A stretch of 24,000 nucleotides of DNA from assembly GCA_036704615.1 (NCBI GenBank), contig JAUBSF010000008.1. One strand, 5' to 3'. The notes beneath the pieces were generated by a model that saw only the letters and a program-made list of their open reading frames with translations, ran no database searches and was not told where the DNA came from. Below, piece after piece: positions 16-15,276 of the stretch. The stretch comes from Microcoleus sp. K4-B3 (GTDB lineage Bacteria > Cyanobacteriota > Cyanobacteriia > Cyanobacteriales > Microcoleaceae). The position numbers and the translations under genes are program-made. The first letter of the stretch is position 1. Each line of letters starts with the position of its first letter.

Positions 16-1608
16 TCAACTCAGCACCGGCGGCAATCCTACTTCTTGCGGCTGCACAAATCGGCCATTAAAACTAACAGCTTTATCCTCAAAAGTCCTC
101 GCTTGGGCAACCGCTTGCCGCAAATGAGCCCGATCCATATCGTCCTCAATTCCCGCGACCAAATAGACCATTAACTTCGCCGCTAAATCCTTTCCAGAAA
201 CTAGCATTCGCTTTTTGTTCGGATCGTACAAAATCCCGTACCACGCAGACTCAGGATTGTCCATGCGGCTAAATCCTTCATCGACATCGAATCTGCGGAG
301 TTTGTCGAAAATAGATTTCAGGGAAAGTTTCTTTCTAAATACTAGAATTCCCAAAGCATTAGCTAAAGCAACTTGACCGACTGGACGGAACAAAAGATTT
401 CCCTCACCCCCTGGCTTTTCAAAACTAAATCGGCGCAATTCGGCGGTTTCTTCGCCGCTTTCAATTCTTTGATAGCTGGGTAAAGTTGCTAAATGATCGA
501 ACAATTTTTTAAACTCTTCAATTCCCTCTTTTAGTTCTTCATCTTCGGGACGCATGGGAATTAAACCTTTTCGTTCCGGCTTCCAATGAGGGAATTTGTA
601 TTCTAAATACCGTTCAGACATATCTTGCAGCGCTTGCAATGTGGTTAAGACAGTTGATTTTGCTGCGACTGTCGCGCTGTCCCAATTGACGCGGGGGTTT
701 CTGTCTTCTTGTTCTTTTAATAAGGGATGGGTGACGGCAATTTTTCGGGCTGCGATCGCAAATCCGTTGTCCTCGTTCAATAATGCTAGCTGACCCTGAC
801 TCAGCGTTACCGCCATTAGGTTAACGTGCACAAAGATCGATCGCACGCGCCGTTGTGCTTGCTGTCGCGTTTCCCCCGCTACCGCCGCCGGGATAAACTC
901 AATCCCGATTTTTTCGTGAGCTAATTTATACACTGTTTCGGGGTCGATTTGATACTCTTCTGCTAAATCTTCGAGAGTAATTGCAGCCCCGACAGGTTTT
1001 TTATTTTTGTTGTATCTTTGCAGGATTCCGGTTTTAATCAAACTCATTAAACCTTGAACTCCCATCAGCCGATGCTGGCCGTCTAAGGCAAAAATTGAGA
1101 CTTTTTGAGAGACATTCAAAAGCCCTAAGTTCTCGTTTTTATCAAACGATGTAAATTCAGCAGCAGATTTAGTTGCTACGCCATTTTTATCCCATTCCTC
1201 GGCTAGGGGATTGTCTACCCACGGAGGACTGACGACTACTAAAACTGCGGGGAATTTGTGCGATTTTCGGGCTGCTAAATATTGAGTTAGGGCGGCTTGG
1301 CGCGACCAATCTAAGGGACGCTGGATAATTTCGTCAATGGTTTCGTCGTCGCGGACGATGTTGTTGGTTTGGAGGTCAAATTTTTGGCGGAAAAGCGGCA
1401 TTTGCGAGGCGAAACGGACGCGAGAGTCTAACCATTCTAGGGTTACTGAACCGATGTATGCTTCGCTGTTTCCCATCTGGGTTTTTTGTACGAAAATGCG
1501 ATCGTCCTTTCCTAAATAATTATCTAATAAAAGTGCGATTTCCTGTCTGTCGCTATTTTCTTTTTCTAATATTTTGCTAGCGAGGTCATCCGCTGGGTGG
1601 GTAGTCAT
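16..1608 (-). CDS. DGQHR-domain protein, DndB/DpdB-like (ParB-fold) paralogue, 530 aa
   Basis: Complete ORF (ATG at 1608, TGA at 16-18). It has a literal FALDGQHRLMG motif, preceded by QRPLDWSRQAALTQYL and FPAVLVVV segments that I associate with the DGQHR/DndB-like family. It is about 150 aa longer than the adjacent dndB product and only distantly similar to it. It is divergently arranged with dndB. Confidence 0.75.
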   Translation of the reverse strand: MTTHPADDLASKILEKENSDRQEIALLLDNYLGKDDRIFVQKTQMGNSEAYIGSVTLEWLDSRVRFASQMPLFRQKFDLQTNNIVRDDETIDEIIQRPLDWSRQAALTQYLAARKSHKFPAVLVVVSPPWVDNPLAEEWDKNGVATKSAAEFTSFDKNENLGLLNVSQKVSIFALDGQHRLMGVQGLMSLIKTGILQRYNKNKKPVGAAITLEDLAEEYQIDPETVYKLAHEKIGIEFIPAAVAGETRQQAQRRVRSIFVHVNLMAVTLSQGQLALLNEDNGFAIAARKIAVTHPLLKEQEDRNPRVNWDSATVAAKSTVLTTLQALQDMSERYLEYKFPHWKPERKGLIPMRPEDEELKEGIEEFKKLFDHLATLPSYQRIESGEETAELRRFSFEKPGGEGNLLFRPVGQVALANALGILVFRKKLSLKSIFDKLRRFDVDEGFSRMDNPESAWYGILYDPNKKRMLVSGKDLAAKLMVYLVAGIEDDMDRAHLRQAVAQARTFEDKAVSFNGRFVQPQEVGLPPVLS

Positions 1609-1765
1609 TGGCGGTTTTTATATAATTAGGCTATTTTTTCAAAAAATATCATATATTAAAGTTTATGTCAACACTTGTTTTTAAAAAAACATTGTGAAAT
1701 ACTTAACTTATTCCCTAATAGCCCACCGTAATACCATAAAATTTGCAAAAAGTCAATAGCTATTA

Positions 1766-1877
1766 ATGCCCCATGCCCCATGCCCCATGCCCCATGCCCC
1801 ATTCCCAATGCCCCATGCCCCATTCCCAATGCCCCATGCCCCATTCCCAATGCCCCATGCCCCATGCCCCATGCCCC
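1766..1877. repeat. Heptanucleotide tandem array (ATGCCCC / ATTCCCA), 16 units, STRR-like
   Basis: Read directly: 16 contiguous 7-nt units. These are 5x ATGCCCC, then 3x [ATTCCCA ATGCCCC ATGCCCC] giving a 21-nt super-period, then 2x ATGCCCC. The array decays into ATTCTAA just before the dndB ATG at 1888. The minus strand reads GGGGCAT repeats. It resembles the short tandemly repeated repetitive (STRR) heptamers known from filamentous cyanobacteria. Confidence 0.95.
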
Positions 1878-1887
1878 ATTCTAAAAT

Positions 1888-3024
1888 ATGTCTACTCCTT
1901 CCTTTGAATACATTTTGCCGGTAATTCGGGGCATTCAAGCGGGCCGCGAATATTACGTGTCGATGTGTCCGGTGCGTTTTTTGCCGAAATTGTTTCCCTT
2001 TGAATCTGAAGATTTGCCGCCGTCTATGCGGGCGAAACGCGGGCTTAACAAAGCTAGGATTCCCGAAATTGCTGAGTATTTTGTTAAGAATCCTACAAAT
2101 TATACTTGTGGGGCAATTGCTGCTTCGATTGATGCGGATATTACTTTTGAAGCAGTGGGAAATGAGGCCGAAGAACGGAAAATCGGTCGCTTGCGAGTGC
2201 CGATGGATGCTAAGTTTACTATTAATGACGGACAGCATCGGCGGGCGGCTTTTGAGATGGCTTTGAGGGAAAATCCGCAGTTGGGATATGAGACGGTGGC
2301 GCTGATTTTGTTTCTCGATATTGGGTTGGAAAAATCGCAGCAGATGTTTGCTGATTTGAACGGTTTTCAAGTTCCTTTGGAGGCGTCACTCAGTCTACTT
2401 TACAACCACCGGGACGATGGCGCTTTTGTGGTGAAGGCTGTTGTTAAGCAGGTTGAGGTTTTCCGGTGTTTGATGGAGATGGAGAGGGGGAGTTTGAACG
2501 GGCGATCGCACAAATTGTTTACGCTGAGTGCGATCGATCGTGCGATCGTGGCTTTGCTGTCTAATATTCACGGCAGCGAACAGGCAAAACCCTCCGGTTC
2601 TCGCACCAAAAAAGAACAGAAAGAGGAAGAACTTGCTCAAAAAATACAACTGGCGGTTAGTTATTGGAATGCAGTTAGCAGTTTTATTCCCGATTGGCAA
2701 TTAGTTCTGCACAAGCAAGTTGCGGCGGCGGAAATGCGCCGGGATTGCGTACACTGTCACAGTGTTGTGCTTGAGAGTTTGGGAGAAGTTGGGGCGGCTT
2801 TGCGATCGGTTTTTCCTGAGAGTTGGGAGGAACGTTTGAGCTTTTTGCGGCAGGTTGATTGGTCGATTTCTAATCCTGATTGGGAGGGTGGGATTTTGTT
2901 GAAAGGGGGGATTTCGCGATCGAGGGCGAGTGTTAGTTGGATGACTGATTATTTGAAAAATCGGTTGGGTTTGGAAACCGCAGATGCAGCACAGGCGGGA
3001 CGCCCGTGCCACACTAAAAACTAG
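1888..3024 (+). CDS. dndB: DNA sulfur modification protein DndB (DGQHR family regulator)
   Basis: 378-aa ORF. The N-terminal FEYILPVIRGIQAGREYYVSMCPVRFLPKLF, FTINDGQHRRAAFEMAL (DGQHR) and FADLN segments fit my memory of DndB. It is on the same strand as dndC/D/E and upstream of them. The last ~16 codons (ETADAAQAGRPCHTKN) are encoded by a dispersed repeat/hairpin at 2976-3010. Confidence 0.85.
   Translation: MSTPSFEYILPVIRGIQAGREYYVSMCPVRFLPKLFPFESEDLPPSMRAKRGLNKARIPEIAEYFVKNPTNYTCGAIAASIDADITFEAVGNEAEERKIGRLRVPMDAKFTINDGQHRRAAFEMALRENPQLGYETVALILFLDIGLEKSQQMFADLNGFQVPLEASLSLLYNHRDDGAFVVKAVVKQVEVFRCLMEMERGSLNGRSHKLFTLSAIDRAIVALLSNIHGSEQAKPSGSRTKKEQKEEELAQKIQLAVSYWNAVSSFIPDWQLVLHKQVAAAEMRRDCVHCHSVVLESLGEVGAALRSVFPESWEERLSFLRQVDWSISNPDWEGGILLKGGISRSRASVSWMTDYLKNRLGLETADAAQAGRPCHTKN
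2976..3010. repeat. Small dispersed element: AACCGCAGATGCA followed by GC-rich near-palindrome GCACAGGCGGGACGCCCGTGC
   Basis: AACCGCAGATGCA at 2976-2988 recurs at 3676-3688, and as AACCGCAGATAAA at 11103. The hairpin part (2989-3009) recurs in reverse complement at 11151-11172 (GGCACGGGCGTCCCGCCTGTGC). The stem is 9 bp with one mismatch. Confidence 0.6.
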
Positions 3025-3032
3025 CTGTGAGT

Positions 3033-3644
3033 TTAATTTAAATAGCGTCGAAACGGTTCTGCAAGAATGCCCAAGATTTGGTCTAGCTGAGTAATAAAAT
3101 ATTCAGTCAAATCAATTTTTAACAACTGATTTTCTAGAATTAGGAATTTCCAGTTTGTACCAGTTGAAACTGCTCCATAAATTGCGGATTGTTCTTGCCC
3201 TTTGCGGGCATTAAATATTTGAGCTGCTGCCATCTGAGCCGCACACTGTCCCAAGCCTATTCTAATATCGTTGTCTTTTGCTTCCACCAATGTCAAAACT
3301 GGGGCAGTCACCAATGATTGATTGCTCGATGCGCTGAGGAGAAAGTCACAAGCCCCGGTTAATCCTTTGCTCTCTTCTACGTTAAATATGTTGCCAGAAA
3401 AGTAGCCAATTTTATTATTAAAAGTGCGCCGTATTTCGAGTAGAATGGGAGTGAGGATTAATTCCGAGCGAGCTTTTTCCGTGCTGATACTTGAGGCTAA
3501 GTCTAAAGCTTCGTCTAGAGTTTGTTTGAGGCGTTCTGAAGGTGCGATCGGGGTAATTTGGCTGAATAAGTGGGGAATGTCTTCAACGGTTAGATCCAGG
3601 GTTGAGACGGCTTGGTCGATGGTTTTGAAGTCGCTGTAGGACAT
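3033..3644 (-). CDS. PD-(D/E)XK nuclease-fold protein (small HsdR-N-like cyanobacterial family), ~203 aa
   Basis: The ORF track starts at a GTG (3689) that lies inside the dispersed repeat, so I prefer the ATG at 3644 (MSYSDFKTIDQ...). A putative nuclease core is GACDFLLSAS ... PVLTLVEAKDND (D ... E-x-K), followed by GQCAAQMAAAQ. The family call comes from motif pattern only. Confidence 0.55.
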   Translation of the reverse strand: MSYSDFKTIDQAVSTLDLTVEDIPHLFSQITPIAPSERLKQTLDEALDLASSISTEKARSELILTPILLEIRRTFNNKIGYFSGNIFNVEESKGLTGACDFLLSASSNQSLVTAPVLTLVEAKDNDIRIGLGQCAAQMAAAQIFNARKGQEQSAIYGAVSTGTNWKFLILENQLLKIDLTEYFITQLDQILGILAEPFRRYLN

Positions 3645-3675
3645 ATTTGATTTGGGTGAGAAATATGATTTTTTT

Positions 3676-3688
3676 AACCGCAGATGCA
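3676..3688. repeat. Second copy of the AACCGCAGATGCA dispersed motif
   Basis: Exact 13-nt match to 2976-2988. It lies in the divergent spacer between the PD-(D/E)XK-like gene and the HNH gene. Confidence 0.5.
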
Positions 3689-3865
3689 CGCGGACAGTGA
3701 TATAATTATCTCCTGTTTAGGCTAGAAAATTAATTTTTAGTCTGCTGACACTGCTTAAATTGTCTAGTTTCTGCATTATGGTTTTGCCTTGTGGCGCTTA
3801 ACCCTCTGTTGACAATAGTGTAAAATTTCATATCCGATTTTATTTAATCCTAGCGGGAGGAGAAA

Positions 3866-4744
3866 ATGACTACAGGAGAAGAGTCCGAAAATAAAAATCT
3901 AGCGTACTATCGCAATTGTTTTTCTCAGATTAAGGTAGGCAAGAATAAACAAGGAGGTAACGCTCTAAATCAGCCAATACTCCTACTGTCTGTAATTGAT
4001 TTAATTACACAAGGCTTACTTGATGAGAACAATATTACTGTTTCCGATCAATTAGTTAACACCTTCAAAAGATACTGGTCTGTATTGAGTTCTGACAGTT
4101 TTGAGGAGATTGATTTTGCTATTCCGTTTTTTCATTTAAAAAACAAGAAACCTAAATTTTGGCACGTTGAATTTAGCGAACAATACACGGGAGGACGCCC
4201 TCAAACCATCAACTCTTTAAGAAGAGATGTTGAAAGAGCGAAAATAGATGGTGAATTATTTGATTTATTGCGAGACTATAATGCCAAAAAAGAATTAATA
4301 GATATACTGATATCTGCCTGGTTTTCCTCAAGCCAAAAACAGATAGAAGATGTTTTAACAATAAATCAGTCTCTCCAAGATTCTACCTGGAATGAATTAG
4401 AGAGTATTGAATCTAGTGATACAGAGGTACAACCAAAGGTGTATTTACGAAAATCTTTGTTTAGAGAGGCTATTTTCCGTAAATCCGTCGTGCATTTGTA
4501 TGATTACCGATGTGCTTTTTGTCGATTGAAAGTTACACGTTCGCTTAGTCAAAGTATTGTAGATGGCGCACATATCAAGCCATTCTCTGAGTTTTATGAT
4601 AATAGACCAGATAATGGGCTCTCACTCTGTAAAAATCATCATTGGGCATTCGACCGAGGATGGTTTGCTGTTGACGATCGTTATCAAATTATAGTGGCTA
4701 GCGATCTACAAGAGGACTCACCATACCCTAGATTAATGAGATAG
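3866..4744 (+). CDS. HNH endonuclease (HNH_2-type, restriction-endonuclease-like) with N-terminal putative DNA-reader domain; truncated by an in-frame TAG
   Basis: GGAGG (3856-3860) lies 5 nt before the ATG. The HNH core is YRCAFCRLKV ... VDGAHIKPFSEFYDNRPDNGLSLCKNHHWAFDRGWF. The N-terminal segments NQPILLLSVIDLI and IPFFHLKNKKPKFWHVEF resemble the winged-helix domain fused to such nucleases. The frame continues open past TAG 4742-4744 for 39 more codons to a TGA at 4862-4864. The gene is AT-rich (21/60 G+C in 3866-3925 by hand count). Confidence 0.8.
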   Translation: MTTGEESENKNLAYYRNCFSQIKVGKNKQGGNALNQPILLLSVIDLITQGLLDENNITVSDQLVNTFKRYWSVLSSDSFEEIDFAIPFFHLKNKKPKFWHVEFSEQYTGGRPQTINSLRRDVERAKIDGELFDLLRDYNAKKELIDILISAWFSSSQKQIEDVLTINQSLQDSTWNELESIESSDTEVQPKVYLRKSLFREAIFRKSVVHLYDYRCAFCRLKVTRSLSQSIVDGAHIKPFSEFYDNRPDNGLSLCKNHHWAFDRGWFAVDDRYQIIVASDLQEDSPYPRLMR

Positions 4745-4860
4745 TTTCACGGAGAACAGATTCTTTTGCCAAGTTTAGAGCAATATTATCCGAGAAAAGA
4801 TGCGCTTCAGTGGCATCGCCAAAATGTGTTTACTTTAAAATCAAAACGGAGTTCTAGAAA

Positions 4861-6546
4861 ATGAATGATTTACAACAAATGTCACTATTTCCGCCCCGCA
4901 ATATTAGCGATTTAATGGCAGACATAGAAATTTTGAAAAAGGAAATTCAAGAGCTTTATTGTCAAGATGAACTCCCACTTGTAATCGGTTGGAGTGGCGG
5001 CAAAGATAGTTCCGCAGTCCTACAGCTTGTCTGGTATGCGATTGCAGAGTTGCCAATTGAGAAACGCCACAAAAAAATTCATGTTTTAACAAATGATACA
5101 CTGGTAGAAAACCCTATAGTAGCTGCTGGAGTACATAATTCTCTAAAACGGATGAAAGTTGCAGCCCAAGAACAGGGAATGCCAATAGAAACTCATTTAA
5201 CTTATCCAGCCGTTCAAGATACCTTTTGGGCGTGCTTAATAGGTAAAGGATACCCAGCACCGAGAAACCGATTTAGATGGTGTACGGAACGATTAAAAAT
5301 ACAACCAACAGGTTCTTTTATTCGTGAAATAATTAGAACTAGCGGCGAGGTAATTCTTGTTCTAGGTACTCGCAAGGCTGAAAGTGTTAAACGCGCCGCA
5401 AATATGGCTAAACATAGGGAGTGGCGGGTAAGCGAACGCCTTAATGCTAATCCCACTCGCCCTAACTCTTATATTTACCTTCCCATTGAAGACTGGCGAA
5501 CAGATGAAGTGTGGCTTTACTTGATGCAGTGGGATAATCCTTGGGGAAATAACAATAAAGATTTGCTAACTATGTATCGAGGTGCAACAGCCGACAATGA
5601 ATGTCCTTTAGTTGTTGATACTTCTACTCCTAGTTGTGGAAATTCTCGCTTTGGCTGCTGGGTTTGCACAATGGTAAGCCAAGATAAATCAATGGAGGCA
5701 ATGATTCAAAACGATGAGGAAAAAGAATGGATGCAGCCTCTCCTTGATATTCGCAACGAATTAGACATTCCAGACGATCACCCAAAAAGAGACTTCCGCC
5801 GCATCTACGGTAGAGTAGAACTGTTTGAACGCAACATGGGCGACGACACAACCTCCGTCGAACCCATCCCAGGGCCCTACACCAAATTCTGGCGAGAACA
5901 CTGGCTGAGACGAGTCTTGGAAGCACAAACCCACATCCGCAAAACCGCACCCCTAGAAATGCGCGATATCACCTTAATTACCCCAGAAGAACTTAGCGAA
6001 ATCCGCCGCATTTGGCTGGAAGAAAAGCACGAATTTGACGACAGTTTGCCCCGGATTTACGAAGAAGTTACGGGCGAACCTTTTGAAGATTCCCGTCCCG
6101 CCGCTGAAAGAAAACTCCTCGGTAGCGACGAATGGGCTGCGATCGAAGAGATTTGCAGCGAGGACAAAATGCACCTCGAATTGATGGCAAAACTCCTTGA
6201 TACAGAACGCCAATACTACACCAAGCCCCGCCGTACAGGCATTTACGCCGATTTGGACAAATGCTTTGAAACCAGTTCGCGATCGAAGGAAGAAGCGATT
6301 GGCAACGCCCACTATCAACGCAATTTAAAAAAAGCGGTGGAAGATATTAAAGCAAATCCGACGGAAAACATTCAGCAATTCAAAGATGCGATCGCCCAAA
6401 CCAACAGTTCCGCCAAAAACGATACCGTTGATATTGCTAAACTTAAAGAAGAACTCGAAAGCAATAGCAATCAAAGCAGACAGCTATCTTGGGCGGACAT
6501 CAAATTTTCACCGCCAAATTCAGGAGAGGAAAAACCTAGCGATTAG
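4861..6546 (+). CDS. dndC: DNA phosphorothioation protein DndC (PAPS-reductase-like PP-loop ATP pyrophosphatase, Fe-S)
   Basis: 561-aa ORF. It has the PP-loop motif VIGWSGGKDSS, the RFRWCTERLKI segment, and a cysteine cluster CGNSRFGCWVCT typical of DndC. Size and position before dndD fit. Confidence 0.9.
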   Translation: MNDLQQMSLFPPRNISDLMADIEILKKEIQELYCQDELPLVIGWSGGKDSSAVLQLVWYAIAELPIEKRHKKIHVLTNDTLVENPIVAAGVHNSLKRMKVAAQEQGMPIETHLTYPAVQDTFWACLIGKGYPAPRNRFRWCTERLKIQPTGSFIREIIRTSGEVILVLGTRKAESVKRAANMAKHREWRVSERLNANPTRPNSYIYLPIEDWRTDEVWLYLMQWDNPWGNNNKDLLTMYRGATADNECPLVVDTSTPSCGNSRFGCWVCTMVSQDKSMEAMIQNDEEKEWMQPLLDIRNELDIPDDHPKRDFRRIYGRVELFERNMGDDTTSVEPIPGPYTKFWREHWLRRVLEAQTHIRKTAPLEMRDITLITPEELSEIRRIWLEEKHEFDDSLPRIYEEVTGEPFEDSRPAAERKLLGSDEWAAIEEICSEDKMHLELMAKLLDTERQYYTKPRRTGIYADLDKCFETSSRSKEEAIGNAHYQRNLKKAVEDIKANPTENIQQFKDAIAQTNSSAKNDTVDIAKLKEELESNSNQSRQLSWADIKFSPPNSGEEKPSD

Positions 6547-6577
6547 CACGCGCTAGCCTGCGGTTAAACCCAAACTT

Positions 6578-6623
6578 GTTGACAGCCACCCCGCCGAGCT
6601 ATCGGATACAATAGGCTGTCAAC
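6578..6623. repeat. 10-bp perfect inverted repeat GTTGACAGCC / GGCTGTCAAC with 26-nt loop, downstream of dndC
   Basis: Read directly (arms 6578-6587 and 6614-6623). There is no T-run after it, so a terminator role is uncertain. It could be an RNA structure or a protein-binding site. Confidence 0.6.
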
Positions 6624-6676
6624 TAACCTCATTATTACCCAACCCTCATCGTTTAAATTACAAAATTTTTACGACC

Positions 6677-7240
6677 ATGATTAATCCTAATATTCCCCAT
6701 CAGGAGCTTACATACAGCATCATCTGCTGTGCAATGAGAGTACACCGGAGGACGCAAAAAGGTTTAAGAGAAAAACATTACCAAAGAGCCTTTGATGCAG
6801 AAATGATAGAAGCCGGTTTAACAACAGAAATGGAGTATCCCAGACAACTTTACGACGGTGAAGTTTGGATGGGAATCCTCTATCTAGACCATTGGGTGAA
6901 TGAAGGTATTGTAGTAGAGGACAAAGCCGTAAATTATCCAATGACCGATAAAGATAAAGCTCAAATAATAGCTTACGTAGCAGCTACAGGAGCGCAAGTA
7001 GGTTTATTTATAAACTTTGGACGCAGCAAATTAGAATATCACCGCATCCTCCCACCAAAATCTGTACAAGGTTGGCAGAAACACATTCAACCATACTTGT
7101 GGACGCCGAAAACAAGTGGCAGGGGTTGGACAAGAGGAAGTTCAGGAACCTATGAAGAAACAGATGCGGAACTCCCCTTACCTCCCAGCATTAGACCCCA
7201 GAAGCAGGAGGAAGATTCAACCGATGTGATTGATTGGTAG
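6677..7240 (+). CDS. GxxExxY protein (PDDEXK_3 nuclease-fold family) with ~60-aa C-terminal tail
   Basis: GLREKHY is the GxxExxY motif. YLDHWVNEGIVVEDKAV supplies a D ... E-x-K core. The canonical fold seems to end near KLEYHRIL (aa ~125). The remaining ~62 aa have no recognisable features. Confidence 0.8.
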   Translation: MINPNIPHQELTYSIICCAMRVHRRTQKGLREKHYQRAFDAEMIEAGLTTEMEYPRQLYDGEVWMGILYLDHWVNEGIVVEDKAVNYPMTDKDKAQIIAYVAATGAQVGLFINFGRSKLEYHRILPPKSVQGWQKHIQPYLWTPKTSGRGWTRGSSGTYEETDAELPLPPSIRPQKQEEDSTDVIDW

Positions 7241-7243
7241 CAA

Positions 7244-7476
7244 GGGGGGGGCGGTTAGCCACGGATTTTGTAACGGATGTAACGGATGATTAGTGGGTGA
7301 TTACCAAATCCGCTGCTAATCGCCCCCCACCAACCACCCAGCCGTTAAATCCGCTGCTAATCGCCCCCCCACCAACCACCCAGCCGTTAAATCCGCTGCT
7401 AACCGTCCCCCCACCAACCACCCAGCCGTTAAATCCGCTACCAAATCCGTGGCTAACCGCCCCCCCACCAACCAAC
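7244..7476. repeat. Complex repeat: 3 full tandem copies plus a fourth, interrupted copy of a 41-42-nt unit, bracketed by a 24-bp perfect inverted repeat
   Basis: The unit is AAATCCGCTGCTAATCG(C6-7)ACCAACCACCCAGCCGTT at 7306-7346, 7347-7388 and 7389-7430. A fourth, interrupted copy runs from 7431, with its main part at 7443-7476. GGGGGGGCGGTTAGCCACGGATTT at 7245-7268 is the exact reverse complement of 7443-7466. The repeat ends 17 nt before the dndD ATG. Confidence 0.9.
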
Positions 7477-7492
7477 AACATCTACATCTACA

Positions 7493-9490
7493 ATGCAATT
7501 CCTCGAACTCGTCCTCAAAAACTTCGGCCCCTATGCAGGCACCCAAACCATCAATCTCCGCCCCGAAAAAGACGGAAATCCCTGCCCAGTCATTTTATTT
7601 GGCGGCATGAATGGCGGCGGCAAAACCACCCTCATGGACGCCATTCGCCTCGCCCTCTACGGCGGCCGCGCCCAATGTTCTACCAGAGGCAATTTAAGCT
7701 ATAGCGACTTTCTCAATCAATGCCTCAACCGCCACACTCCCCCATTAGAAGATACCCGCGTCGAACTAACATTTGAACAAGTCCAAGACGACAAATTAAC
7801 TCAATTCAAAATAGTTAGATACTGGAAAAAATTAGACATCAAAGACACCTTAAGCATTCTCATATACAGCGAGATTGTCAGCGATTGGTGGTCGGACAAA
7901 GCAATTACTAACACCTGGGACGAATACATCGAAACCCTTTTGCCCGTCGGAATATCTAACCTATTTTTGTTTGACGGCGAACAAGTAAAAGAACTTGCAG
8001 AACTCGAAACACCGCCAGAGTTTGTCGTCGGGGCGATTAAATCTCTTTTAGGTTTAGAATTAGCAGAACGCCTCGCCGTCGATTTAGAAATATTAGCCGG
8101 CCGCAAGCGGAAAGAAATTGCTGGCAAAAAAGACTTGGCTGCTTTAGAGAAAATTGAACAAACTTTTAAGAAAATTACTGATGAAATAGAGTTAGCTAAG
8201 CAAGAACAAGCCAGCTTTAAAAACGAAGTAGATAAAGCTCAAAAAAATCAGCAACAAGCATCAGAAAAGTTTATTTATGAAGGGGGAAAAATTGCCGCCG
8301 ATCGCAGTCAGCTAGACAGCAAGCTAAACGACTACAGAAATCAGGCAGACAAAACCCGTCAAGCCATGATGGAATTGGCGTCAAATACGCTACCACTCGC
8401 CCTAATTTCGCCCTTGCTAAGTGAAGCCAAAATTCAAGCAGAAACCGAAGCCAGCCAGCAGCAAGCAAAGATTGCCCAAAATGTTATCAAACAAAGAAGC
8501 GATCGCCTTCTCAACTATATCGCGGAAATCTCGTTAAATCCCCAACAGCTAGATAAAATTCAAGACTTCATCCGCCAAGAAAACCAAGAACTCGAACAGC
8601 AAGCCGGAACAGACGCCCCGCCCTGGATGAACGCCGACAACAACAGCATCCAGCAACTAGAAAACCTTCTTAGCTACCAAATCAAAGCCCAGCAAATTCT
8701 AGCCCGCGACCAAATAGAAGAAATCAAAAGCATCGAAGCAGAAATCGACTTTACAGACAGACAACTCGCAGCCGCAGCTTCCCCCGAAGCCTACGAAAAA
8801 CTAGAAGAAGAAGTCAGGAAAGCCCAAAAAGCAGTCGCTATCGCAGCCGCCGCCTTGGAATCAGCCAACCGCCGCGTCGATGAATTAGAGAGAGAATTAG
8901 CCAAAAACCAAAAAGAACTAGAAAACTACAGCAGCGAATACATCACTATCAGAAACAGCCAACACGTCATCGCTTCTATCGCCAAAGCCCAAGCCACCCT
9001 GAAACTCTTTAAAGAAAAACTCACCCTCAAAAAACTCAACAAACTCGAAATAGAAATTACCGACTGTTTTCGCTACCTGTTGCACAAAACCGACCTCGTA
9101 CACAGAGTTGCGATCGACACTCAAACATTTAGCCTCTCCATTTACGATCCAGAAGGCAAACCGGTACCCAAACACCGACTTTCAGCCGGGGAAAAACAAT
9201 TGCTGGCGATCGCCTTTTTGTGGGGATTGGCTAGAGTATCCGGGAGACAATTGCCAGTTGCGATCGACACTCCCTTGGGCCGCCTCGACTCCTCCCACAG
9301 AAACAACCTAGTCGAACGCTATTTCCCCTCGGCCAGCCACCAAGTCATCCTGCTTTCTACCGACACGGAAATTAGAAAAGTAGAATACGAAAAACTCCAA
9401 GAATTAGAGGCGATCGCCCACAGCTACCTCCTCAAATACGACTCTGCCAAACACCAAACTACCGTCGAAAAAGGTTACTTCTGGGAATAA
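7493..9490 (+). CDS. dndD: DNA sulfur modification protein DndD (SMC/ABC-like ATPase)
   Basis: 665-aa ORF. It has MQFLELVLKNFGPYAG, Walker A FGGMNGGGKTT, a long coiled-coil middle, signature LSAGEKQLLAIAF and Walker B PVAIDTPLGRLD. Confidence 0.9.
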   Translation: MQFLELVLKNFGPYAGTQTINLRPEKDGNPCPVILFGGMNGGGKTTLMDAIRLALYGGRAQCSTRGNLSYSDFLNQCLNRHTPPLEDTRVELTFEQVQDDKLTQFKIVRYWKKLDIKDTLSILIYSEIVSDWWSDKAITNTWDEYIETLLPVGISNLFLFDGEQVKELAELETPPEFVVGAIKSLLGLELAERLAVDLEILAGRKRKEIAGKKDLAALEKIEQTFKKITDEIELAKQEQASFKNEVDKAQKNQQQASEKFIYEGGKIAADRSQLDSKLNDYRNQADKTRQAMMELASNTLPLALISPLLSEAKIQAETEASQQQAKIAQNVIKQRSDRLLNYIAEISLNPQQLDKIQDFIRQENQELEQQAGTDAPPWMNADNNSIQQLENLLSYQIKAQQILARDQIEEIKSIEAEIDFTDRQLAAAASPEAYEKLEEEVRKAQKAVAIAAAALESANRRVDELERELAKNQKELENYSSEYITIRNSQHVIASIAKAQATLKLFKEKLTLKKLNKLEIEITDCFRYLLHKTDLVHRVAIDTQTFSLSIYDPEGKPVPKHRLSAGEKQLLAIAFLWGLARVSGRQLPVAIDTPLGRLDSSHRNNLVERYFPSASHQVILLSTDTEIRKVEYEKLQELEAIAHSYLLKYDSAKHQTTVEKGYFWE

Positions 9491-9521
9491 AAATTCGCTC
9501 CAAAAAATAGCCGCAACCCCC

Positions 9522-9550
9522 TTGACTTTGCTGGGGAGTTGCGGTAGTAT
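9522..9550 (+). promoter_or_regulatory. Candidate sigma70-type promoter TTGACT-N17-TAGTAT upstream of dndE
   Basis: The hexamers at 9522-9527 and 9545-9550 have exact 17-nt spacing. They overlap an imperfect hairpin (CCGCAACCCCC ... GGGGAGTTGCGG, 9511-9544), so the stretch may instead be a post-dndD structure. Confidence 0.25.
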
Positions 9551-9558
9551 ATATAGGA

Positions 9559-9603
9559 TAATGGGATGGTTGCGAAAATTTTATTTTTGCCACCATCCCA
9601 TTA
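9559..9603. promoter_or_regulatory. 12-bp perfect inverted repeat TAATGGGATGGT / ACCATCCCATTA with 21-nt AT-rich loop in the dndD-dndE spacer
   Basis: Read directly (arms 9559-9570 and 9592-9603). The function is unknown; it could be an operator, an attenuator or an RNA hairpin. Confidence 0.7.
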
Positions 9604-9756
9604 TTAAGGATAAATCCTACTACAATCACAATACCAAAAAACAACCTTTTTATCAAGTCGCGCCGTGTAAAAATTTGTTAATTTTTTCTAGTTATCTAGA
9701 GGCTTTGCTTCCCGAATATTAACACTTTTTACAATATACCAAACACTCTCAAACTC

Positions 9757-10158
9757 ATGGAACCACCAGTCGATCGCATCCGCCTCTCCCAAACAGGCAA
9801 AGACCAACTATCAAAACTGAAACGATCGACCAAAATCGATCAATGGAATATTTTATGCAGGTGGGGATTTTGCCGATCGCTCGCGGAGCCCAGCATCCCA
9901 TCCCCAGTACCAATTCCCAGCGACAGCAACGTCGAATTAAGCTGGGATGTCTTCGGCGGCGACATGGCCGATATCTTGATAATTGCCCTCAAGCAGCGGT
10001 GTCACCAAGACAATTTAGGCACAGAAAAAGAAACTCTAGCGAAACAGTTTCGCCTGCACTTGCACCGAGGGATTGGTTATTTGGCCGGCGATCCGAATAT
10101 TAAGAAAATCGAAGACTTGGTGGCGATCGCCCTATCGCCAGAGAAATTAAGAAATTAA
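9757..10158 (+). CDS. dndE: DNA sulfur modification protein DndE
   Basis: 133-aa ORF. IRLSQTGKDQLSKLKRSTKIDQWNILCRWGFCRSL ... VELSWDVFGG fits the DndE pattern as I remember it. Its position after dndD fits too. Confidence 0.8.
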   Translation: MEPPVDRIRLSQTGKDQLSKLKRSTKIDQWNILCRWGFCRSLAEPSIPSPVPIPSDSNVELSWDVFGGDMADILIIALKQRCHQDNLGTEKETLAKQFRLHLHRGIGYLAGDPNIKKIEDLVAIALSPEKLRN

Positions 10159-10165
10159 CTGATTG

Positions 10166-10200
10166 TTGACAGTTGACAGTTGACAGTTGACAGTTGACAG
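10166..10200. repeat. Heptamer tandem array TTGACAG x5
   Basis: Read directly. It starts 8 nt after the dndE stop. Confidence 0.95.
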
Positions 10201-10280
10201 TTGTTATTGGTTATTAGCAGGCCCAAGCGAGCAACAAATAAATAACAAATAACCAATAACCAATAACCAATAACCAATGA
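10201..10280. terminator. Palindromic heptamer arms (TTATTGG ... CCAATAA x4) between convergent dndE and thiD; possible bidirectional terminator
   Basis: GTTATTGGTTATT (10203-10215) can pair with AATAACCAATAAC (10248-10260). The right arm continues as CCAATAA repeats to 10278, close to the thiD stop (10285). Confidence 0.4.
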
Positions 10281-10284
10281 CTTC

Positions 10285-11094
10285 TTACTTCAGTAAAAGC
10301 GGGAAAAAATGACCTACTGGCCCTTGACCTTCCCCAATATCCAAAGCATATTTGAGAGCAGTAGTAACATAATCCTTAGCCAATGTCACCGCCGTAAACA
10401 AATCTTTCCCCAAAGCCAAATTAGCAGCGATCGCAGCACTCAAAGTACAACCAGTCCCGTGAGTATTCCCAGTATCAACATTTTCAGTCTTCAACACATC
10501 CAACCGCGTACCGTCAAACCAAACATCAATTCCCCGCAAATCTCCCTTCATCCCGCCGCCTTTCACCAAAACAGCCTTTGCGCCCAAACGGTAAATCTGC
10601 TGCGCCGCCGATCGCATATCATCTACAGAATCAATCTCTAAACCGCTCAAAATAGTCGCTTCAAAGCGATTTGGAGTCACAACAGCAGCCATTGTAATCA
10701 AAACATCCTGCAAAAAGGCGATCGCCCCCTCATCAATCAATCGATCGCCCGATCGTGAAACCATCACCGGATCGACAACCAAATTCCCCATCTTTAAACT
10801 CTCCATCTGCGAAGCCACCGCCACCATAATTTCCCGGTTCAACAGCATCCCAGTCTTCACAGCATCCACCCCAATATCCCCAACCACCGCCTCAATTTGA
10901 GCCGCCACAGCCTCCGCAGACAAAGCATCAACTCGCATCACCCCCAAAGTATTTTGAGCCGTCACGCAAGTCAAAGCACTCGTACCGTGCACGCAGTGAA
11001 ACGCAAAAGTCCGCAAATCCGCCTGAATCCCGGCCCCGCCGCCACTGTCAGATCCAGCCACAGTCAAAGCCACAGGAATCTTCGATTTAATCAT
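10285..11094 (-). CDS. thiD: Hydroxymethylpyrimidine/phosphomethylpyrimidine kinase ThiD
   Basis: 269-aa ORF. ALTVAGSDSGGGAGIQADLRTF, VKTGML and GTGCTLSAAIAANLA are classic ThiD motifs. Confidence 0.9.
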   Translation of the reverse strand: MIKSKIPVALTVAGSDSGGGAGIQADLRTFAFHCVHGTSALTCVTAQNTLGVMRVDALSAEAVAAQIEAVVGDIGVDAVKTGMLLNREIMVAVASQMESLKMGNLVVDPVMVSRSGDRLIDEGAIAFLQDVLITMAAVVTPNRFEATILSGLEIDSVDDMRSAAQQIYRLGAKAVLVKGGGMKGDLRGIDVWFDGTRLDVLKTENVDTGNTHGTGCTLSAAIAANLALGKDLFTAVTLAKDYVTTALKYALDIGEGQGPVGHFFPLLLK

Positions 11095-11234: not shown

Positions 11235-12026
11235 TTGCAAACAACTGTGAAACTCACCCGAATCGACCTCAACTCTTGGATCTTTCACATCGCCGGTCAA
11301 ACCATCCTCGTCGATCCCTGGCTGGTCGATCCCCTTGTATTTTACGGTCAACCCTGGCTGTTCACCGCCTACCACAACACCCCCGTCGCCTTCACTCCTA
11401 GTACCTTACCGCCGATCGACCTCATCCTGATTTCCCAAGGATTAGACGACCACTGCCACAGACCAACACTCGAACAGCTCGATCGCACAATTCCCGCGAT
11501 CGCCTCACCCACCGCAGCCAAAGTCCTCAGCAGTTTAGGCTACACTAATATCACATCTTTAGCCAATTGGCAAGAATTTAATTATCAAGAAAAGTTACAA
11601 ATTACCGCCGTACCCGGAGCCGAAATCCAGCCGGGACAGGAAGAAAACGGCTACTTGCTCAAAGACTTAACCAGCGGCGAGACACTTTATTACGAACCGC
11701 ACTTACCGCCATTAGAAAAAGTCAAACAGAAAATAGACACAGTAGACGTAGCCATCGCCCCAGTCATCGGTCAAATCTTCCCATTCCTCGGACAAGTCAT
11801 CATCGGCCCTTCGCAAGCCCTCAGCCTCGCCCAAACACTCAAACCTAGGTTTTTTCTGCCTACAGCGGCGGGAGACATCCGAGCCACAGGCATTTTACCA
11901 ATGTTAGTGCGATCGGTCGGCAGCATCCCCGAATTTCGCGATTTACTAGCAAAATCGGGACTCTCCACCCAACTCCTCGAACCCGATCCCGGTCAAACCC
12001 TAGAAATTTTAGATTTTAGATTTTAG
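11235..12026 (+). CDS. MBL-fold (metallo-beta-lactamase-like) protein with degenerate metal motif
   Basis: The ORF starts at TTG 11235; an in-frame GTG at 11247 (VKLTRIDLNSW) is an alternative start. The LILISQGLDDHCH segment sits where HxHxDH normally lies. The last codons (ILDFRF) are encoded by the heptamer array. Confidence 0.6.
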   Translation: MQTTVKLTRIDLNSWIFHIAGQTILVDPWLVDPLVFYGQPWLFTAYHNTPVAFTPSTLPPIDLILISQGLDDHCHRPTLEQLDRTIPAIASPTAAKVLSSLGYTNITSLANWQEFNYQEKLQITAVPGAEIQPGQEENGYLLKDLTSGETLYYEPHLPPLEKVKQKIDTVDVAIAPVIGQIFPFLGQVIIGPSQALSLAQTLKPRFFLPTAAGDIRATGILPMLVRSVGSIPEFRDLLAKSGLSTQLLEPDPGQTLEILDFRF

Positions 12027-12163
12027 ATTTTCGATTGGAGATGTTCGATTTGAGATTTTCGCTTTTCTAGATTGGAGATTTTCGATTTTTTAGATTGGAG
12101 ATTGGAGATTGGAGATTCAATCCAAAATCCAAAATCCAAAATCTAAAATCTAAAATCTAAAAT
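12006..12163. repeat. Palindromic heptamer array (ATTTTAG/TTGGAGA ... TCCAAAA/TCTAAAA); possible bidirectional terminator
   Basis: The outer arms ATTTTAGATTTTAGATTTTAGATTTT (12006-12031) and AAAATCTAAAATCTAAAATCTAAAAT (12138-12163) are 26-bp perfect reverse complements. Related degenerate heptamers lie between them. The array spans the whole gap between the MBL-gene stop (12024-12026) and the ftsZ stop (12163-12165). Confidence 0.9.
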
Positions 12164-13437
12164 CATCTTGGCGGGCGACGGTTGCGTAAAAACTCAGGAA
12201 TATCCAATCCCAAATCCTGCGGCGGTTTCGTTTTCGGATCGGGCGTCTGTTGAGCAGGAGTCGTCGGCACAGTTGCAGCCCGCCAAGGAGCATTAACATT
12301 TTGCGTCCGCCCCGGAGTCGGAGGCGACGGAACTTCCCCCGAAAAACCAGTAGCGATCACAGTAATCTTAATTTCGCCCTGAAGCCGCTCGTCAATCACC
12401 GCTCCAAAAATAATATTGGCATTCGGATCGACAACCTCGTAAATCGTCTCCGCCGCTGCATTCACCTCGTGCAGCGTCATGTCAGTACCGCCAGTGATGT
12501 TAAACACCACACCTCTAGCGCCCTCAATAGACGAAGCTTCCAGCAGAGGCGAAGAAATAGCCTGCATCGCAGCCTCCCTAGCCCGCGACTTGCCAGAACC
12601 CACGCCGATGCCCATCAAAGCCGAACCCGCATCCGCCATTACTGCCCGCACGTCAGCAAAGTCAACATTCACCAAACCGGGAATAGTAATAATGTCAGAA
12701 ATACCCTGAACCCCTTGGCGCAGGATATCGTCAGCAACTCGGAAAGCTTCTTGTACCGGCATTTGTTCCGAAATCACAGACAGCAGCTTGTCGTTAGGAA
12801 TCACGATCAGCGTATCCACCCGGGTTTGCAAAGCCGCAATCCCTTCCTCAGCTTGGCTGGTGCGCCGCCGTCCCTCAAACGTAAAAGGCCGCGTCACTAT
12901 GCCCACAGTCAAGGCGCCCATTTCCTTAGCGACCTCAGCCACGATCGGAGCCGCGCCTGTGCCCGTACCGCCGCCCATGCCGGCCGTGATAAATACCAAA
13001 TCCGCGTGATTCAGAGCATTAGCAACTTCGTCCCGAGATTCCTCAGCAGCCTTTTGGCCGATCGCCGGATTGCCCCCCGCGCCTAAACCGCGCGTCAACT
13101 TCTGTCCGACTTGCAAGCGTTTCGGAGCATTTGAGAGAACCAGAGCTTGGGAATCTGTATTCACGCACCAAAACTCGACACCAGAAACCTCGCTAGCAAT
13201 CATCCGGTTAACGGCGTTGCCCCCACCACCGCCGACGCCAATTACTTTGATTTTGGCAGCACTGCTGGGCATTATGTCTTTGGGATTGACCATAGGATCG
13301 ATATCAATACTATCTACATTTACATAACCAGACTTGCGTCTAAAGGGATTGGCGGAATCTGCCGCCACCGGAAAATTTTTTACTTCTTCCGAAGGGGGAC
13401 TGTCTTGGTCAGACCCCTGTCTATTATTAAGCTTCAT
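12163..13437 (-). CDS. ftsZ: Cell division GTPase FtsZ
   Basis: [29 protein letters not shown] and [16 protein letters not shown] motifs are present, with a C-terminal [13 protein letters not shown] tail. The track ORF starts at 13548, but the first 37 codons read through the IS right end. The ATG at 13437 ([11 protein letters not shown]...) gives a ~424-aa product like other cyanobacterial FtsZ proteins. Confidence 0.95.
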
Positions 13438-13459: not shown

Positions 13460-13700
13460 CAGCTTGGTGACATCCTCCATACACCGATTTGGAGTACCAA
13501 ATGAGCGTGTAGGCTTCCCAAATTCACAGATGGGCATTCCTGCTTCATTGGTCGTATCTAGACCGAAGTCCCCGATAACGATACCTCCACAGGCAACTTG
13601 ACTGCGAGTCCCGCAGCGGCAAGACCCCTTTGTTCTACTACCATTGCAGCAGCAACATCGCGGTCTGTTGTGTATCCACACTCATGACAAGCATGAATGC
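13460..13700 (-). ncRNA. Putative TnpB omega/reRNA (overlaps the tnpB 3' end and the right end); extent guessed
   Basis: This call is by analogy only. In characterised TnpB elements the guide RNA scaffold derives from the tnpB 3' end plus the RE. No covariance or expression evidence is available here. Confidence 0.3.
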
Positions 13701-14754
13701 GATCGGACAGCTTTTTCTTTCCTGTATGAGTGGAACACTGAGGACAAGTTTGGCTAGTGCCATTCGGGTCAACTTTAGCAAAGTACACGCCACGTTTCCA
13801 GCAAACCCAAGATAGGATATCGAGGAATCCGCCCCAACTAGCATCAAGACAGTGTTTTGCTAGCATCCCGCGACTCATCATTTTGAGATTCAACTCCTCA
13901 GCAAAAATCATTCCAACTCCCAAATCGCATAAAGCATGAGCTGTTTTGAAATGAAACTCTTTACGGATATCATGAATGCGCTCGTGCAGAAGGCAGACTT
14001 TGTGTTGGATCTTGCGGTAGTTAGCAGACCCCTTAGTTTTGTTTCTCAGCTTGCGTTGCAGCCATTTAAGCTTGCTTTCCAAGTCTACAAAGAAACGTGG
14101 TCTTGAGAGTAACTTACCGTTAGATACAGCCAAGAATTTCTCCAATCCCAGATCGATGCCAATAGACAAACCATGAGGCATGAGCTCGGGAACAGAGACA
14201 TCACACTGCAAAATCAATTGAGTGTACCATCCTGATGCTTTGTTGATTACCCTCACTTGTTTAATGACAAACCCATCTGGGATGGGGCGGTGCAAATTAA
14301 TTGGCACTGCTCCAATCTTAGGCAGCTTTATTTGTACTCCTATCAATGGATAGTCTTTGAACTGAGGGAAAGTAAACGACCGATACGAACCTAACTTTTT
14401 GAATCTAGGAAACCCAAAACCACGTTCTTTCATAAACTTGAAAGCCCGATCGAGTCGCTTCAAGGCATCTTGTAAAACTTGCGATTGAACCTCTTTGAGT
14501 TCGGGATTTACTTTTTTCGCTCTTGTCAGGGCGTTCTGTTGTTTGTAATAGTCAGGATACGCTGCGTCAGATGGAATGATGTACTCAGAATGAATACTGC
14601 AAGCGTCGAACGCACACTTACGCGATGCTATCGAGTCTTTTCGCTCTCGCAAAGCGTAATTATAAACTTTGCGACAAATCTCCATCCAAGCAAGCATTCT
14701 GGCTTCTTGACTGGCATCTGGATAAATTCGATATGTGTACGTCAAACTGAGCAT
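13558..14754 (-). CDS. tnpB: TnpB (IS605 OrfB-type RNA-guided endonuclease)
   Basis: MLSLTYTYRIYP... is the typical N-terminus. The RuvC triad candidates are IGIDLGLEKF (D), FAEELNLKMM (E) and TTDRDVAAAMV (D). The zinc finger is CPQC ... CHEC. I prefer the ATG at 14754, which is preceded by GGAGG (14762-14766), over the track start at 14769. Confidence 0.9.
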   Translation of the reverse strand: MLSLTYTYRIYPDASQEARMLAWMEICRKVYNYALRERKDSIASRKCAFDACSIHSEYIIPSDAAYPDYYKQQNALTRAKKVNPELKEVQSQVLQDALKRLDRAFKFMKERGFGFPRFKKLGSYRSFTFPQFKDYPLIGVQIKLPKIGAVPINLHRPIPDGFVIKQVRVINKASGWYTQLILQCDVSVPELMPHGLSIGIDLGLEKFLAVSNGKLLSRPRFFVDLESKLKWLQRKLRNKTKGSANYRKIQHKVCLLHERIHDIRKEFHFKTAHALCDLGVGMIFAEELNLKMMSRGMLAKHCLDASWGGFLDILSWVCWKRGVYFAKVDPNGTSQTCPQCSTHTGKKKLSDRIHACHECGYTTDRDVAAAMVVEQRGLAAAGLAVKLPVEVSLSGTSV

Positions 14755-15276
14755 TGTGCAACCTCCCATCGAATTCTAACAGAATTTACAATTTTCTTAG
14801 AATACTGGAGAAATTGTGATATACTTAACAGCCTTATTCCCTCACTTGCTTGTAGTAAATATCGATCGCAGGGCGTTTCGTTTATAACTACCTTATATCC
14901 CGCCACCGATAGGGAGTACCAAATTAGTGTGAGGGACGAGGGCGCGAAATTGTTAACTAAACGCCAATTCACGATCAACTATAGGCTATGTTGCGCGAAA
15001 AACTCACACAGATCGATGCTCAATGTTAGCAATCTCGGATTTTGCCGGCTTTGCAAAGCTGAGACCTCGATTGACCCCAATCCGGGCGCTTGTACGCTGC
15101 GTCAGAAGGAAAAAAAGTTGATACTAGCCTCCCCCATCCGGATGGAAAGAAAAATCAGATTTTTTTTCCCGACTCGATATCAAAAAAGTGTCCTTATTTC
15201 CAGCCGTGCGTATTGATCCTGATGGCTAAAAATTCTGCCGTCCGATCGATACCTTCTACCTTCTGTTGACAGACGA

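Follow-up and report, generated by a model that had tools for sequence, protein, structure and literature searches.

A phosphorothioation (dnd) locus of Microcoleus with an embedded SBD-HNH gene and strain-variable small inserts

A 24-kb stretch of Microcoleus DNA (contig JAUBSF010000008.1; "the window" below means this whole stretch) carries dndB, dndC, dndD and dndE, the genes of a DNA-phosphorothioation system, with three genes of nuclease-like fold set among them. One of the three, an HNH gene lying directly upstream of dndC, encodes a recognisable member of the family that joins a sulfur-binding domain (SBD) to an HNH nuclease, and to judge by its distribution it has long accompanied cyanobacterial dnd loci, from Oscillatoriales to Nostocales, as an accessory integrated in the operon. 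The best overall explanation, to which we give a probability of roughly 0.55, is that this is a dnd operon of a kind already published, in which the SBD-HNH protein would be an integrated reader of the phosphorothioate (PT) mark, broken in this genome, and the two other small genes would be hitchhikers. The families concerned, their association with Dnd and the Microcoleus locus itself are already in the literature; possibly new are only the behaviour of the SBD-HNH gene and the 5′ part of dndC as an allelic cassette, and the natural nonsense allele found here.

The dnd writer and its embedded HNH protein

We compared the open reading frames (ORFs) of the window with NCBIfam/TIGRFAM families at their equivalog cut-offs, with Pfam and with PADLOC models. 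All four dnd genes exceed the equivalog cut-offs, and Pfam and PADLOC concur (Table 1). As an initial annotation made from the letters alone had proposed, the four genes lie on the + strand without being contiguous, with gaps of 1836 bp (dndB-dndC), 946 bp (dndC-dndD) and 266 bp (dndD-dndE), and the gaps hold what it had described: a minus-strand PD-(D/E)XK-like gene (PD-DExK below), an HNH_2 gene, a GxxExxY gene with a repeat of about 230 bp, and a palindrome between dndD and dndE. Every family that it had named for profile searching (DndB, DndC, DndD, DndE, DGQHR, HNH_2 and PDDEXK_3) was matched. It had also listed no dndA, and indeed no large ORF of the window matches the cysteine desulfurase or aminotransferase class V families of NCBIfam and Pfam. 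Because DndA is replaceable by IscS according to the literature, the missing gene does not exclude membership of the DndBCDE type; dndA is also missing from other dnd loci. On these matches the genes form a DndBCDE phosphorothioation module, a complete writer apart from dndA.

For this writer the initial annotation could recognise no restriction partner, a claim that did not survive closer comparison of the HNH protein, whose N-terminal half is a sulfur-binding domain. Its residues 11-148 match the SBD of Hga (8h0l) with E = 9e-11 for the single sequence and 4e-18 for a family profile. When the AlphaFold (AF2) model of a 97%-identical full-length relative (pLDDT 74) was compared with solved structures by Foldseek, the same SBD of Hga was the top PDB match (probability 1.0, TM 0.74), followed by VcaM4I, TagI, SprMcrA-SBD and ScoMcrA, with 7ccd and 5zmm among the matches. 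The domain is an SBD rather than DUF262, as seen both in Pfam and in the match to 8h0l, and an SRA domain is absent. In the HNH part the catalytic and zinc residues C216, C219, H236, N250, C255, H258 and H259 are all present. The model for PT-DNA-binding restriction endonucleases (NF045808, "phosphorothioated DNA-binding restriction endonuclease") gives the window protein 75 bits, below its cut-off of 180, and full-length relatives of two allele types, A and B, reach 106 bits (type A, with the whole model covered) and 139 bits (type B), still below it. By sequence and by the relative's model, the HNH protein is a recognisable SBD-HNH family member and a putative PT reader. The cavity residues H25, K26, L75, P76 and H79 of Hga correspond to N35, Q36, I86, P87 and H90 in the window protein, and the first two, the sulfur-contact pair H/K, vary among the 120 nearest homologues, being NQ in 42, NK in 24, YK in 12 and HK in 4. 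In ScoMcrA the corresponding set of sulfur-cavity residues is H116, R117, Y164 and P165.

The distribution of the gene was followed in a comparison set of 80 cyanobacterial dnd loci, obtained by a DndC scan with one genome per species and labelled L001 onwards; all window proteins were searched against the fetched loci by tblastn, and the variable slots and upstream flanks were annotated. The closest locus is that of Microcoleus vaginatus HSN003 (L001), with a DndC 99% identical to that of the window. SBD-HNH homologues occur in 39 of the 80 DndC-anchored loci and stand directly upstream of dndC in 33, among them loci of Microcoleus, Kamptonema, Microseira, Coleofasciculus, Floridaenema, Limnoraphis and others; in Nostoc-type loci the gene is found beyond the DGQHR gene. 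A homologue from Oxynema and one from Halotia, chosen without reference to dndC, both proved to be inside dnd loci. The Oxynema locus is compact, with the DGQHR gene divergent from dndB-SBDHNH-dndC-dndD-dndE. In Halotia (L100) the SBD-HNH gene stands immediately after dnd_assoc_4, a gene associated with Pbe, in a place taken in Microcoleus by a nuclease gene of the EEP type. The neighbourhood comparison that the initial annotation had called for gave a divided answer, with the SBD-HNH gene linked to dnd and the two small genes polymorphic.

The copy in the window is interrupted. An in-frame GAG to TAG change has removed its last 39 residues, which are conserved, leaving an ORF of 292 residues compared with 313-353 in the homologues. 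The missing tail, in which W316, H317 and R318 are invariant in 30 homologues, can be aligned with the C-terminal end of VcaM4I (6yex). The remnant of the tail can still be read in frame, up to a TGA (4862-4864) that overlaps the ATG of dndC (4861-4863) as a 4-nt ATGA stop/start overlap, and an identical 4-nt overlap is present in the called genes of L093 and L098; as read from this arrangement, the SBD-HNH gene is translationally coupled to dndC in intact alleles. The other alleles checked are intact (9/9), the ORF is intact in about 37 of 39 loci with the copy of L054 split, and dN/dS between alleles is 0.11-0.47. The TAG would therefore be a recent mutation, or a sequencing error, in a gene otherwise under constraint. 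As the sequence stands, the SBD-HNH protein of this window is probably non-functional.

Variable parts of the locus

The window is 93-99% identical in nucleotide sequence to conspecific loci except at about 3700-5600, where identity is 59-76%. The divergent block consists of the SBD-HNH gene and the first ~750 nt (~250 codons) of dndC (loci L006, L009, L012, L046, L007 and L030). It has a low GC content of 0.36-0.40, to which the region 3500-5000 also falls, and HIP1 sites (GCGATCGC), which number 16 in the window against 0.3 expected, are absent at 2510-6387, a stretch covering the PD-DExK and SBD-HNH genes and the 5′ portion of dndC. Elsewhere the slot upstream of dndC is occupied either by a diverged SBD-HNH allele, such as type B, which is 53-56% identical and is recognised by Pfam DNA-SBD_ScoMcrA, or by a third full-length DndB-family gene (Pfam DndB 1e-70 to 1e-85). 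Each N-terminal haplotype of DndC is paired with a single type of occupant across genera. For instance, the N-terminus of the window DndC shares 77-83% identity with its counterparts in Kamptonema, Microseira and Coleofasciculus, which have the same reader type, and only 63% with those of conspecific type-B Microcoleus strains, though the DndC C-terminus of these is 98% identical. In these alignments the SBD-HNH gene appears to be exchanged together with the first ~250 codons of dndC, as one allelic cassette, which appears to be a new observation. It may reflect simple linkage to a slot on which diversifying selection acts, or else reader and writer may have co-adapted. A stronger version, in which the SBD-HNH protein and the ~250 N-terminal residues of DndC make up a co-adapted, horizontally exchangeable "reader plus writer-specificity" cassette, seems to us rather unlikely; if it reflected function and not mere linkage, the DndC N-terminal domain would help to set the PT target context or would contact the reader directly, and the alleles of natural Microcoleus strains would form a series in which PT specificity changes without self-cleavage.

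The two small genes behave differently from the SBD-HNH gene. Homologues of the PD-DExK protein have about 203 residues, and its true start is therefore probably the ATG at 3644. Four loci that agree with the window in other respects, L001, L002, L046 and L098, lack the gene, and its homologues with 80-83% identity (in Scytonema, Calothrix and another cyanobacterium) are found in unrelated, dnd-free loci between housekeeping genes; a sequence search of solved structures returned nothing for this protein. We also considered a link to CRISPR, suggested by the PADLOC label PDLC01472, and rejected it, CRISPR-Cas being absent from the window and from beside the three homologues examined. The GxxExxY protein has an atypical extra ~60 residues at its C-terminus. 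Its gene is found in about 20 Microcoleus loci and is missing in others, with differences even between near-identical strains; the dndC-dndD spacer otherwise holds an IS200-type Y1 transposase gene (11 loci) or a Uma2 gene (3 loci), or is empty (gaps of 40-330 bp). Homologues with 58-69% identity adjoin glycine-cleavage genes, ClpB or CRISPR loci. In L098, which shares the type-A cassette of the window, dndB-SBDHNH-dndC-dndD-dndE includes neither small gene and has a dndC-dndD gap of 123 bp.

The initial annotation had offered, as its alternative, that the nuclease-fold genes are selfish genes that colonised the spacers, and it had named contiguous dnd genes in relatives and scattered homologues of the inserts as the pattern to look for. 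The presence/absence polymorphism and the homologues in unrelated loci fit this alternative for the PD-DExK and GxxExxY genes, which on present sequence comparisons fit best as dispensable, strain-variable hitchhikers in repeatedly colonised spacers. It does not extend to the HNH gene, which is integrated in the operon, and the scatter is incomplete for GxxExxY, which recurs in the dnd slot of Crinalium and Limnoraphis.

The spacers also hold repeats. BLAST found diverged copies of the long hairpin repeat (Table 1) in 20 of the fetched loci, and the hits examined place it immediately 3′ of the GxxExxY gene; an exact search for its 42-nt core in the fetched loci gave no match. No Rfam family reached its gathering threshold anywhere in the window, so the repeats are not a known RNA. 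The dndD-dndE spacer is conserved in some relatives, and in others it is expanded or holds a PDDEXK_3 gene, a 213-aa ORF or a PemK toxin gene. Heptamer repeats (ATGCCCC, GTTGACA, AATAACC, AATCCAA and similar) like those of the divergent promoter region also occur at 10165-10278 and 12006-12164, with copy numbers that vary between strains.

Interruption of dnd genes in cyanobacteria has been noted before. Jian et al. called the structure of the cyanobacterial dnd operon "disordered", and according to the accessible text of Tee et al. (2021; PMC8546630) the anatoxin cluster splits dndBC from dndDE in toxic Microcoleus. In L025 and L044 (M. anatoxicus) we did not find dndD within 10 kb downstream of dndC, which is consistent with that published insertion. 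In Crinalium (L088, 3248-8632) dndC and dndD are each in two ORFs, with PDDEXK_3 genes in both the dndC-dndD and the dndD-dndE spacers, and the locus looks to be decaying.

To the left, the window ends only 15 bp past the DGQHR gene. In relatives the region immediately beyond this gene encodes PbeA (PLD/HKD and SF2 helicase), PbeC (a CxC ABC ATPase) and PbeD/dnd_assoc_4, with scores of 2e-160 for PbeA, 1e-168 to 6e-221 for PbeC and 190 bits for dnd_assoc_4 (TIGR04062); they lie there in L001, L002, L006 and most other loci, often with EEP nuclease and toxin-antitoxin genes. The earlier statement that there is no Pbe module therefore holds inside the 24 kb, where DndD matches the PADLOC models of PbeC only by family similarity, and fails for relatives, in which PbeA, PbeC, PbeD and the EEP nuclease are just left of the DGQHR gene. 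By analogy, this genome presumably carries Pbe as well; an exact look-up of the window's DGQHR protein, meant to reach the DNA to its left, gave no record. No match to DndF, DndG or DndH was found among the ORFs of 16-10158 (PADLOC) or the downstream ORFs (Pfam), and the flanks of relatives carry Pbe instead of DndFGH. The Pbe region shows its own variation: in Microcoleus the Pbe dnd_assoc_4 gene is followed by an Exo_endo_phos (EEP) gene (L001 3856-4914; counted in 25 loci), M. vaginatus HSN003 has a tandem insertion of two Uma2 genes behind PbeC (L001 1539-2898), and PbeA is split into two ORFs in L006 (22-2190). This module is thus likewise colonised and possibly decaying.

The 530-aa DGQHR protein itself, divergent from dndB as had been described, matches the TIGR03187 domain without being a DndB equivalog in NCBIfam. 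It is found in 62 of the 80 loci, including Nostoc-type loci without a canonical dndB, is 61-74% identical between orders and has an invariant DGQHR motif; a 12-sequence profile matched no solved structure. It looks like a core component, perhaps an ancestral DndB-type regulator. A role as a DndI/SspE-like sensor-nuclease was rejected, since only DGQHR/DndB models match and no nuclease domain was detected. At about 20 loci a third full-length DndB-family gene stands upstream of dndC in place of SBD-HNH (for instance L007 8649-9827, - strand, and L013 8577-9830, + strand), so that some genomes have three DGQHR/DndB paralogues at one locus.

Competing explanations and known systems

The explanation that we prefer would work as follows. 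The operon dndB-[SBD-HNH]-dndC-dndD-dndE would be transcribed rightward and the conserved DGQHR paralogue leftward, sulfur would be supplied by a housekeeping cysteine desulfurase, and DndBCDE would mark the host DNA. Nuclease functions would come from the flanking Pbe module and, where it is intact, from the SBD-HNH protein, which would read the PT mark and act as a nuclease effector of the module. All characterised members of the SBD-HNH family act on PT DNA; this one would need a specificity compatible with that of the resident writer, the likeliest being for PT in non-self sequence contexts, and cutting only PT outside the resident motif would make such a reader compatible with co-expression.

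Several points weigh against this explanation. The window copy of the reader is truncated, and Pbe was observed in relatives rather than in this genome. The cationic pair of the characterised domains (H25/K26 in Hga, H116/R117 in ScoMcrA) is N35/Q36 in the window allele; in ScoMcrA the changes R117A and R117G abolish PT binding and R117Q lowers it, and PT reading by the window allele is therefore likely but not assured. A PT-dependent nuclease that is co-expressed with a PT writer should be self-toxic. According to Lutz et al., fewer than 3.6% of SBD-HNH enzymes are near dnd and such cases are possibly inactive; our frequency contrasts with that general figure and agrees with Rakesh et al. (2024; PMC10853773), who, in the accessible part of their paper, describe SBD(wHTH)+SAD+HNH nucleases from Dnd loci in 698 taxa and suggest that they serve as restriction components. 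Finally, the GxxExxY relatives in the dndC-dndD slot of Crinalium and Limnoraphis are 60-68% identical to the window protein, and a preference for this spacer, or a long residence in it, and hence some function, is possible.

The nuclease could also be the missing restriction partner rather than a type IV enzyme, an effector like DndI or SspE for which resident PT would mark self and unmodified invader DNA would be cut, with PT sites either releasing or inhibiting the enzyme or stimulating its activation. We regard this as possible though on balance doubtful. It would suit a gene that is co-transcribed and translationally coupled with dndC through the stop/start overlap and has long been retained inside writer loci under purifying selection, and there is a precedent in DndI and SspE, which sense PT via a hydrophobic patch and spare self DNA; the accessible text of Rakesh et al. 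proposes Dnd-linked SBD-type HNH nucleases as real restriction components, and the position of the Halotia gene after dnd_assoc_4 points the same way. However, the SBD-HNH enzymes that have been tested all cleave or restrict PT-modified DNA and not unmodified DNA, the protein has no NTPase domain for a DndI-like release cycle, and the gene has been lost, replaced by a DndB paralogue or truncated while the remaining locus was kept, unlike what is expected of a toxic restriction partner. An opposite reading takes all inserts, the HNH gene included, as selfish or decaying passengers, SBD-HNH being a stand-alone type IV enzyme that is being lost. The nonsense codon here and the split copy in L054, the polymorphic slot upstream of dndC, and the low GC of the cassette and its want of HIP1 sites, which are consistent with a foreign origin, all lend themselves to it, but we think it improbable in the face of a position next to dnd kept from Oscillatoriales to Nostocales, the overlap with dndC, the dN/dS values and largely intact ORFs, and an SBD-HNH allele that co-segregates with the DndC N-terminal haplotype across genera.

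Very improbable, in our view, is the proposal of the initial annotation taken as a whole, in which the three embedded genes would jointly provide a non-canonical PT-linked reader or restriction function specific to the split operon. All three do have nuclease folds and sit inside the operon, stand-alone genes of restriction-endonuclease (REase) fold at Dnd loci are, in the accessible text of Rakesh et al., suggested as possible back-up suicide effectors, and GxxExxY is in the same slot in three genera. Set against this are the close relatives that have the same cassette without one or both small genes, the scatter of PD-DExK homologues over dnd-free loci and of GxxExxY homologues beside other genes, and the IS200 transposases, Uma2 genes and toxin genes that the same spacers host elsewhere. 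What stands of the proposal is the PT-linkage of the HNH gene, and there the word "non-canonical" is to be dropped, as this is a known SBD-HNH family that had already been described in Dnd neighbourhoods; the PD-DExK and GxxExxY genes are strain-variable inserts.

The nearest characterised relatives of the HNH protein are the SBD-HNH type IV enzymes (ScoMcrA, SprMcrA, EcoWI, and Hga, 8H0L). The window protein shares with them the N-terminal winged-helix SBD, the C-terminal HNH_2 domain, the CxxC...C..H zinc residues and the HNH residues, and with Hga I86, P87 and H90 (for L75, P76 and H79). It differs in having no SRA domain, in the N35/Q36 pair, in its score below the NF045808 cut-off and in its truncation; moreover, the characterised enzymes serve their hosts by restricting incoming PT DNA, whereas the window gene is inside a PT-writer operon and coupled to dndC. 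DndI and SspE (DUF262 ParB-like NTPase plus DUF1524 HNH) are likewise HNH nucleases with a genetic link to a PT writer; they sense PT through a hydrophobic surface and are a conceptual model for sparing self DNA; they differ in using ParB-like DUF262 instead of an SBD winged helix, in possessing an NTPase, and in belonging to another HNH subfamily. The 530-aa DGQHR protein is also ParB-like, but without a detected nuclease domain.

At the level of the locus, the accessible parts of the survey by Rakesh, Aravind and Krishnan (NAR 2024) describe DndBCDE beside CxC-ABC genes (Pbe; here seen in relatives only), SBD(wHTH)-type HNH genes, stand-alone REase-fold genes at or within the boundaries of Dnd neighbourhoods, and absence of DndFGH, all of which resemble our loci. 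The published wHTH+SAD+HNH genes are there mostly downstream of the modification genes, unlike the SAD-less gene between dndB and dndC found here, and those parts do not describe a cassette formed with the DndC N-terminus. PbeABCD coupled to dndCDE(A) (Xiong et al. 2019, as re-annotated in the accessible text of PMC10853773) is matched by the PbeA, PbeC and dnd_assoc_4 genes that adjoin dnd in relatives; the cyanobacterial module differs in lying outside the window, separated from dndC by the DGQHR gene and, in many cases, by EEP nuclease and toxin-antitoxin genes too. The study of Tee et al. (mBio) concerns the same genus and locus, and its accessible sections give dndBCDE with an upstream restriction enzyme and the same dndC-dndD break point; the SBD-HNH gene, the DGQHR paralogue and the small inserted genes are not mentioned in those sections.

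On how a PT-reading nuclease could coexist with the PT writer beside which it is encoded and co-expressed, published views run from rare, possibly inactive outliers to the genomics-based proposal of a real restriction partner. A single genus here offers intact, truncated, replaced and swapped reader alleles on a background of 95-99% identity, a natural comparison set for asking whether foreign or self marks are targeted and what part of the Dnd system determines the modification motif. As to annotation, cyanobacterial dnd loci should not be equated with orphan modification systems, nor should small PD-(D/E)XK-fold genes in the spacers be taken as system components.

Features and neighbouring genes

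The features of the dnd region are collected in Table 1. The genes on its 3′ side are thiD, an MBL-fold gene, ftsZ, a TnpB gene, ftsQ, an ATPase gene and a giant WD40 gene; downstream genes of the thiD, ftsZ and ftsQ kind place the dnd locus on the chromosome, and the abundance of HIP1 together with heptamer repeats in several spacers fits a filamentous cyanobacterium. The locus is a chromosomal DNA-phosphorothioation locus of a Microcoleus vaginatus-type cyanobacterium. A scan of 1500-10400 for promoter and terminator consensus sequences gave counts at the level of shuffled sequence and is uninformative on operon structure.

Table 1. Positions and supporting matches of features in the dnd region of the window
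Feature	Position	Strand	Evidence or detail
530-aa DGQHR-domain protein, DndB superfamily paralogue, divergent from dndB	16-1608	-	TIGR03187 5e-53; Pfam DndB 4e-12
Heptamer tandem repeat ATGCCCC, 16 copies, divergent promoter region	1766-1879		
dndB	1888-3024	+	TIGR03233 408 bits (cut-off 328); PADLOC DndB 2.6e-131
Stand-alone PD-(D/E)XK-fold gene	3033-3689	-	PADLOC PD_DExK 1.2e-47; strings ACDFLL and LVEAKDND present
SBD-HNH gene, truncated at codon 293	3866-4744	+	SBD residues ~11-150, HNH ~216-270; HNH_2 5.8e-13
In-frame TAG; GAG or GAT (Glu/Asp) in relatives	4742-4744	+	DNA alignment with L001-L004
In-frame remnant of conserved tail (FHGEQILLP...ALQWHRQNVF)	4745-4864	+	TGA 4862-4864
dndC	4861-6546	+	TIGR03183 690 bits (cut-off 290); first ~250 codons in variable cassette
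GxxExxY/PDDEXK_3 gene	6677-7240	+	TIGR04256 82 bits (cut-off 35); PF13366 1.3e-20, 74 bits (cut-off 22)
Long hairpin repeat, 55-nt inverted arms round 42-nt tandem units (x3.2)	7245-7466		folds at -96 kcal/mol, z = -10
dndD	7493-9490	+	TIGR03185 643 bits (cut-off 246)
Palindrome, 22-nt arms, dndD-dndE spacer	9558-9604		
dndE	9757-10158	+	TIGR03184 136 bits (cut-off 72); PF08870 5.6e-44

Among the downstream genes, that for TnpB (IS605 OrfB / Cas12f-like TNB; 13558-14769, - strand) stands between ftsZ and ftsQ. L093 has this gene and L094-L098 do not, so that it is a recent insertion into a cell-division gene neighbourhood. Further along, a P-loop ATPase gene (16517-17848) has weak KAP/STAND-type matches, and the gene for a WD40 protein of more than 1800 residues occupies 18529-24000; neither is related to the dnd finding. 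The counterpart of the WD40 protein in relatives has nSTAND1/AAA_16 matches in Pfam.

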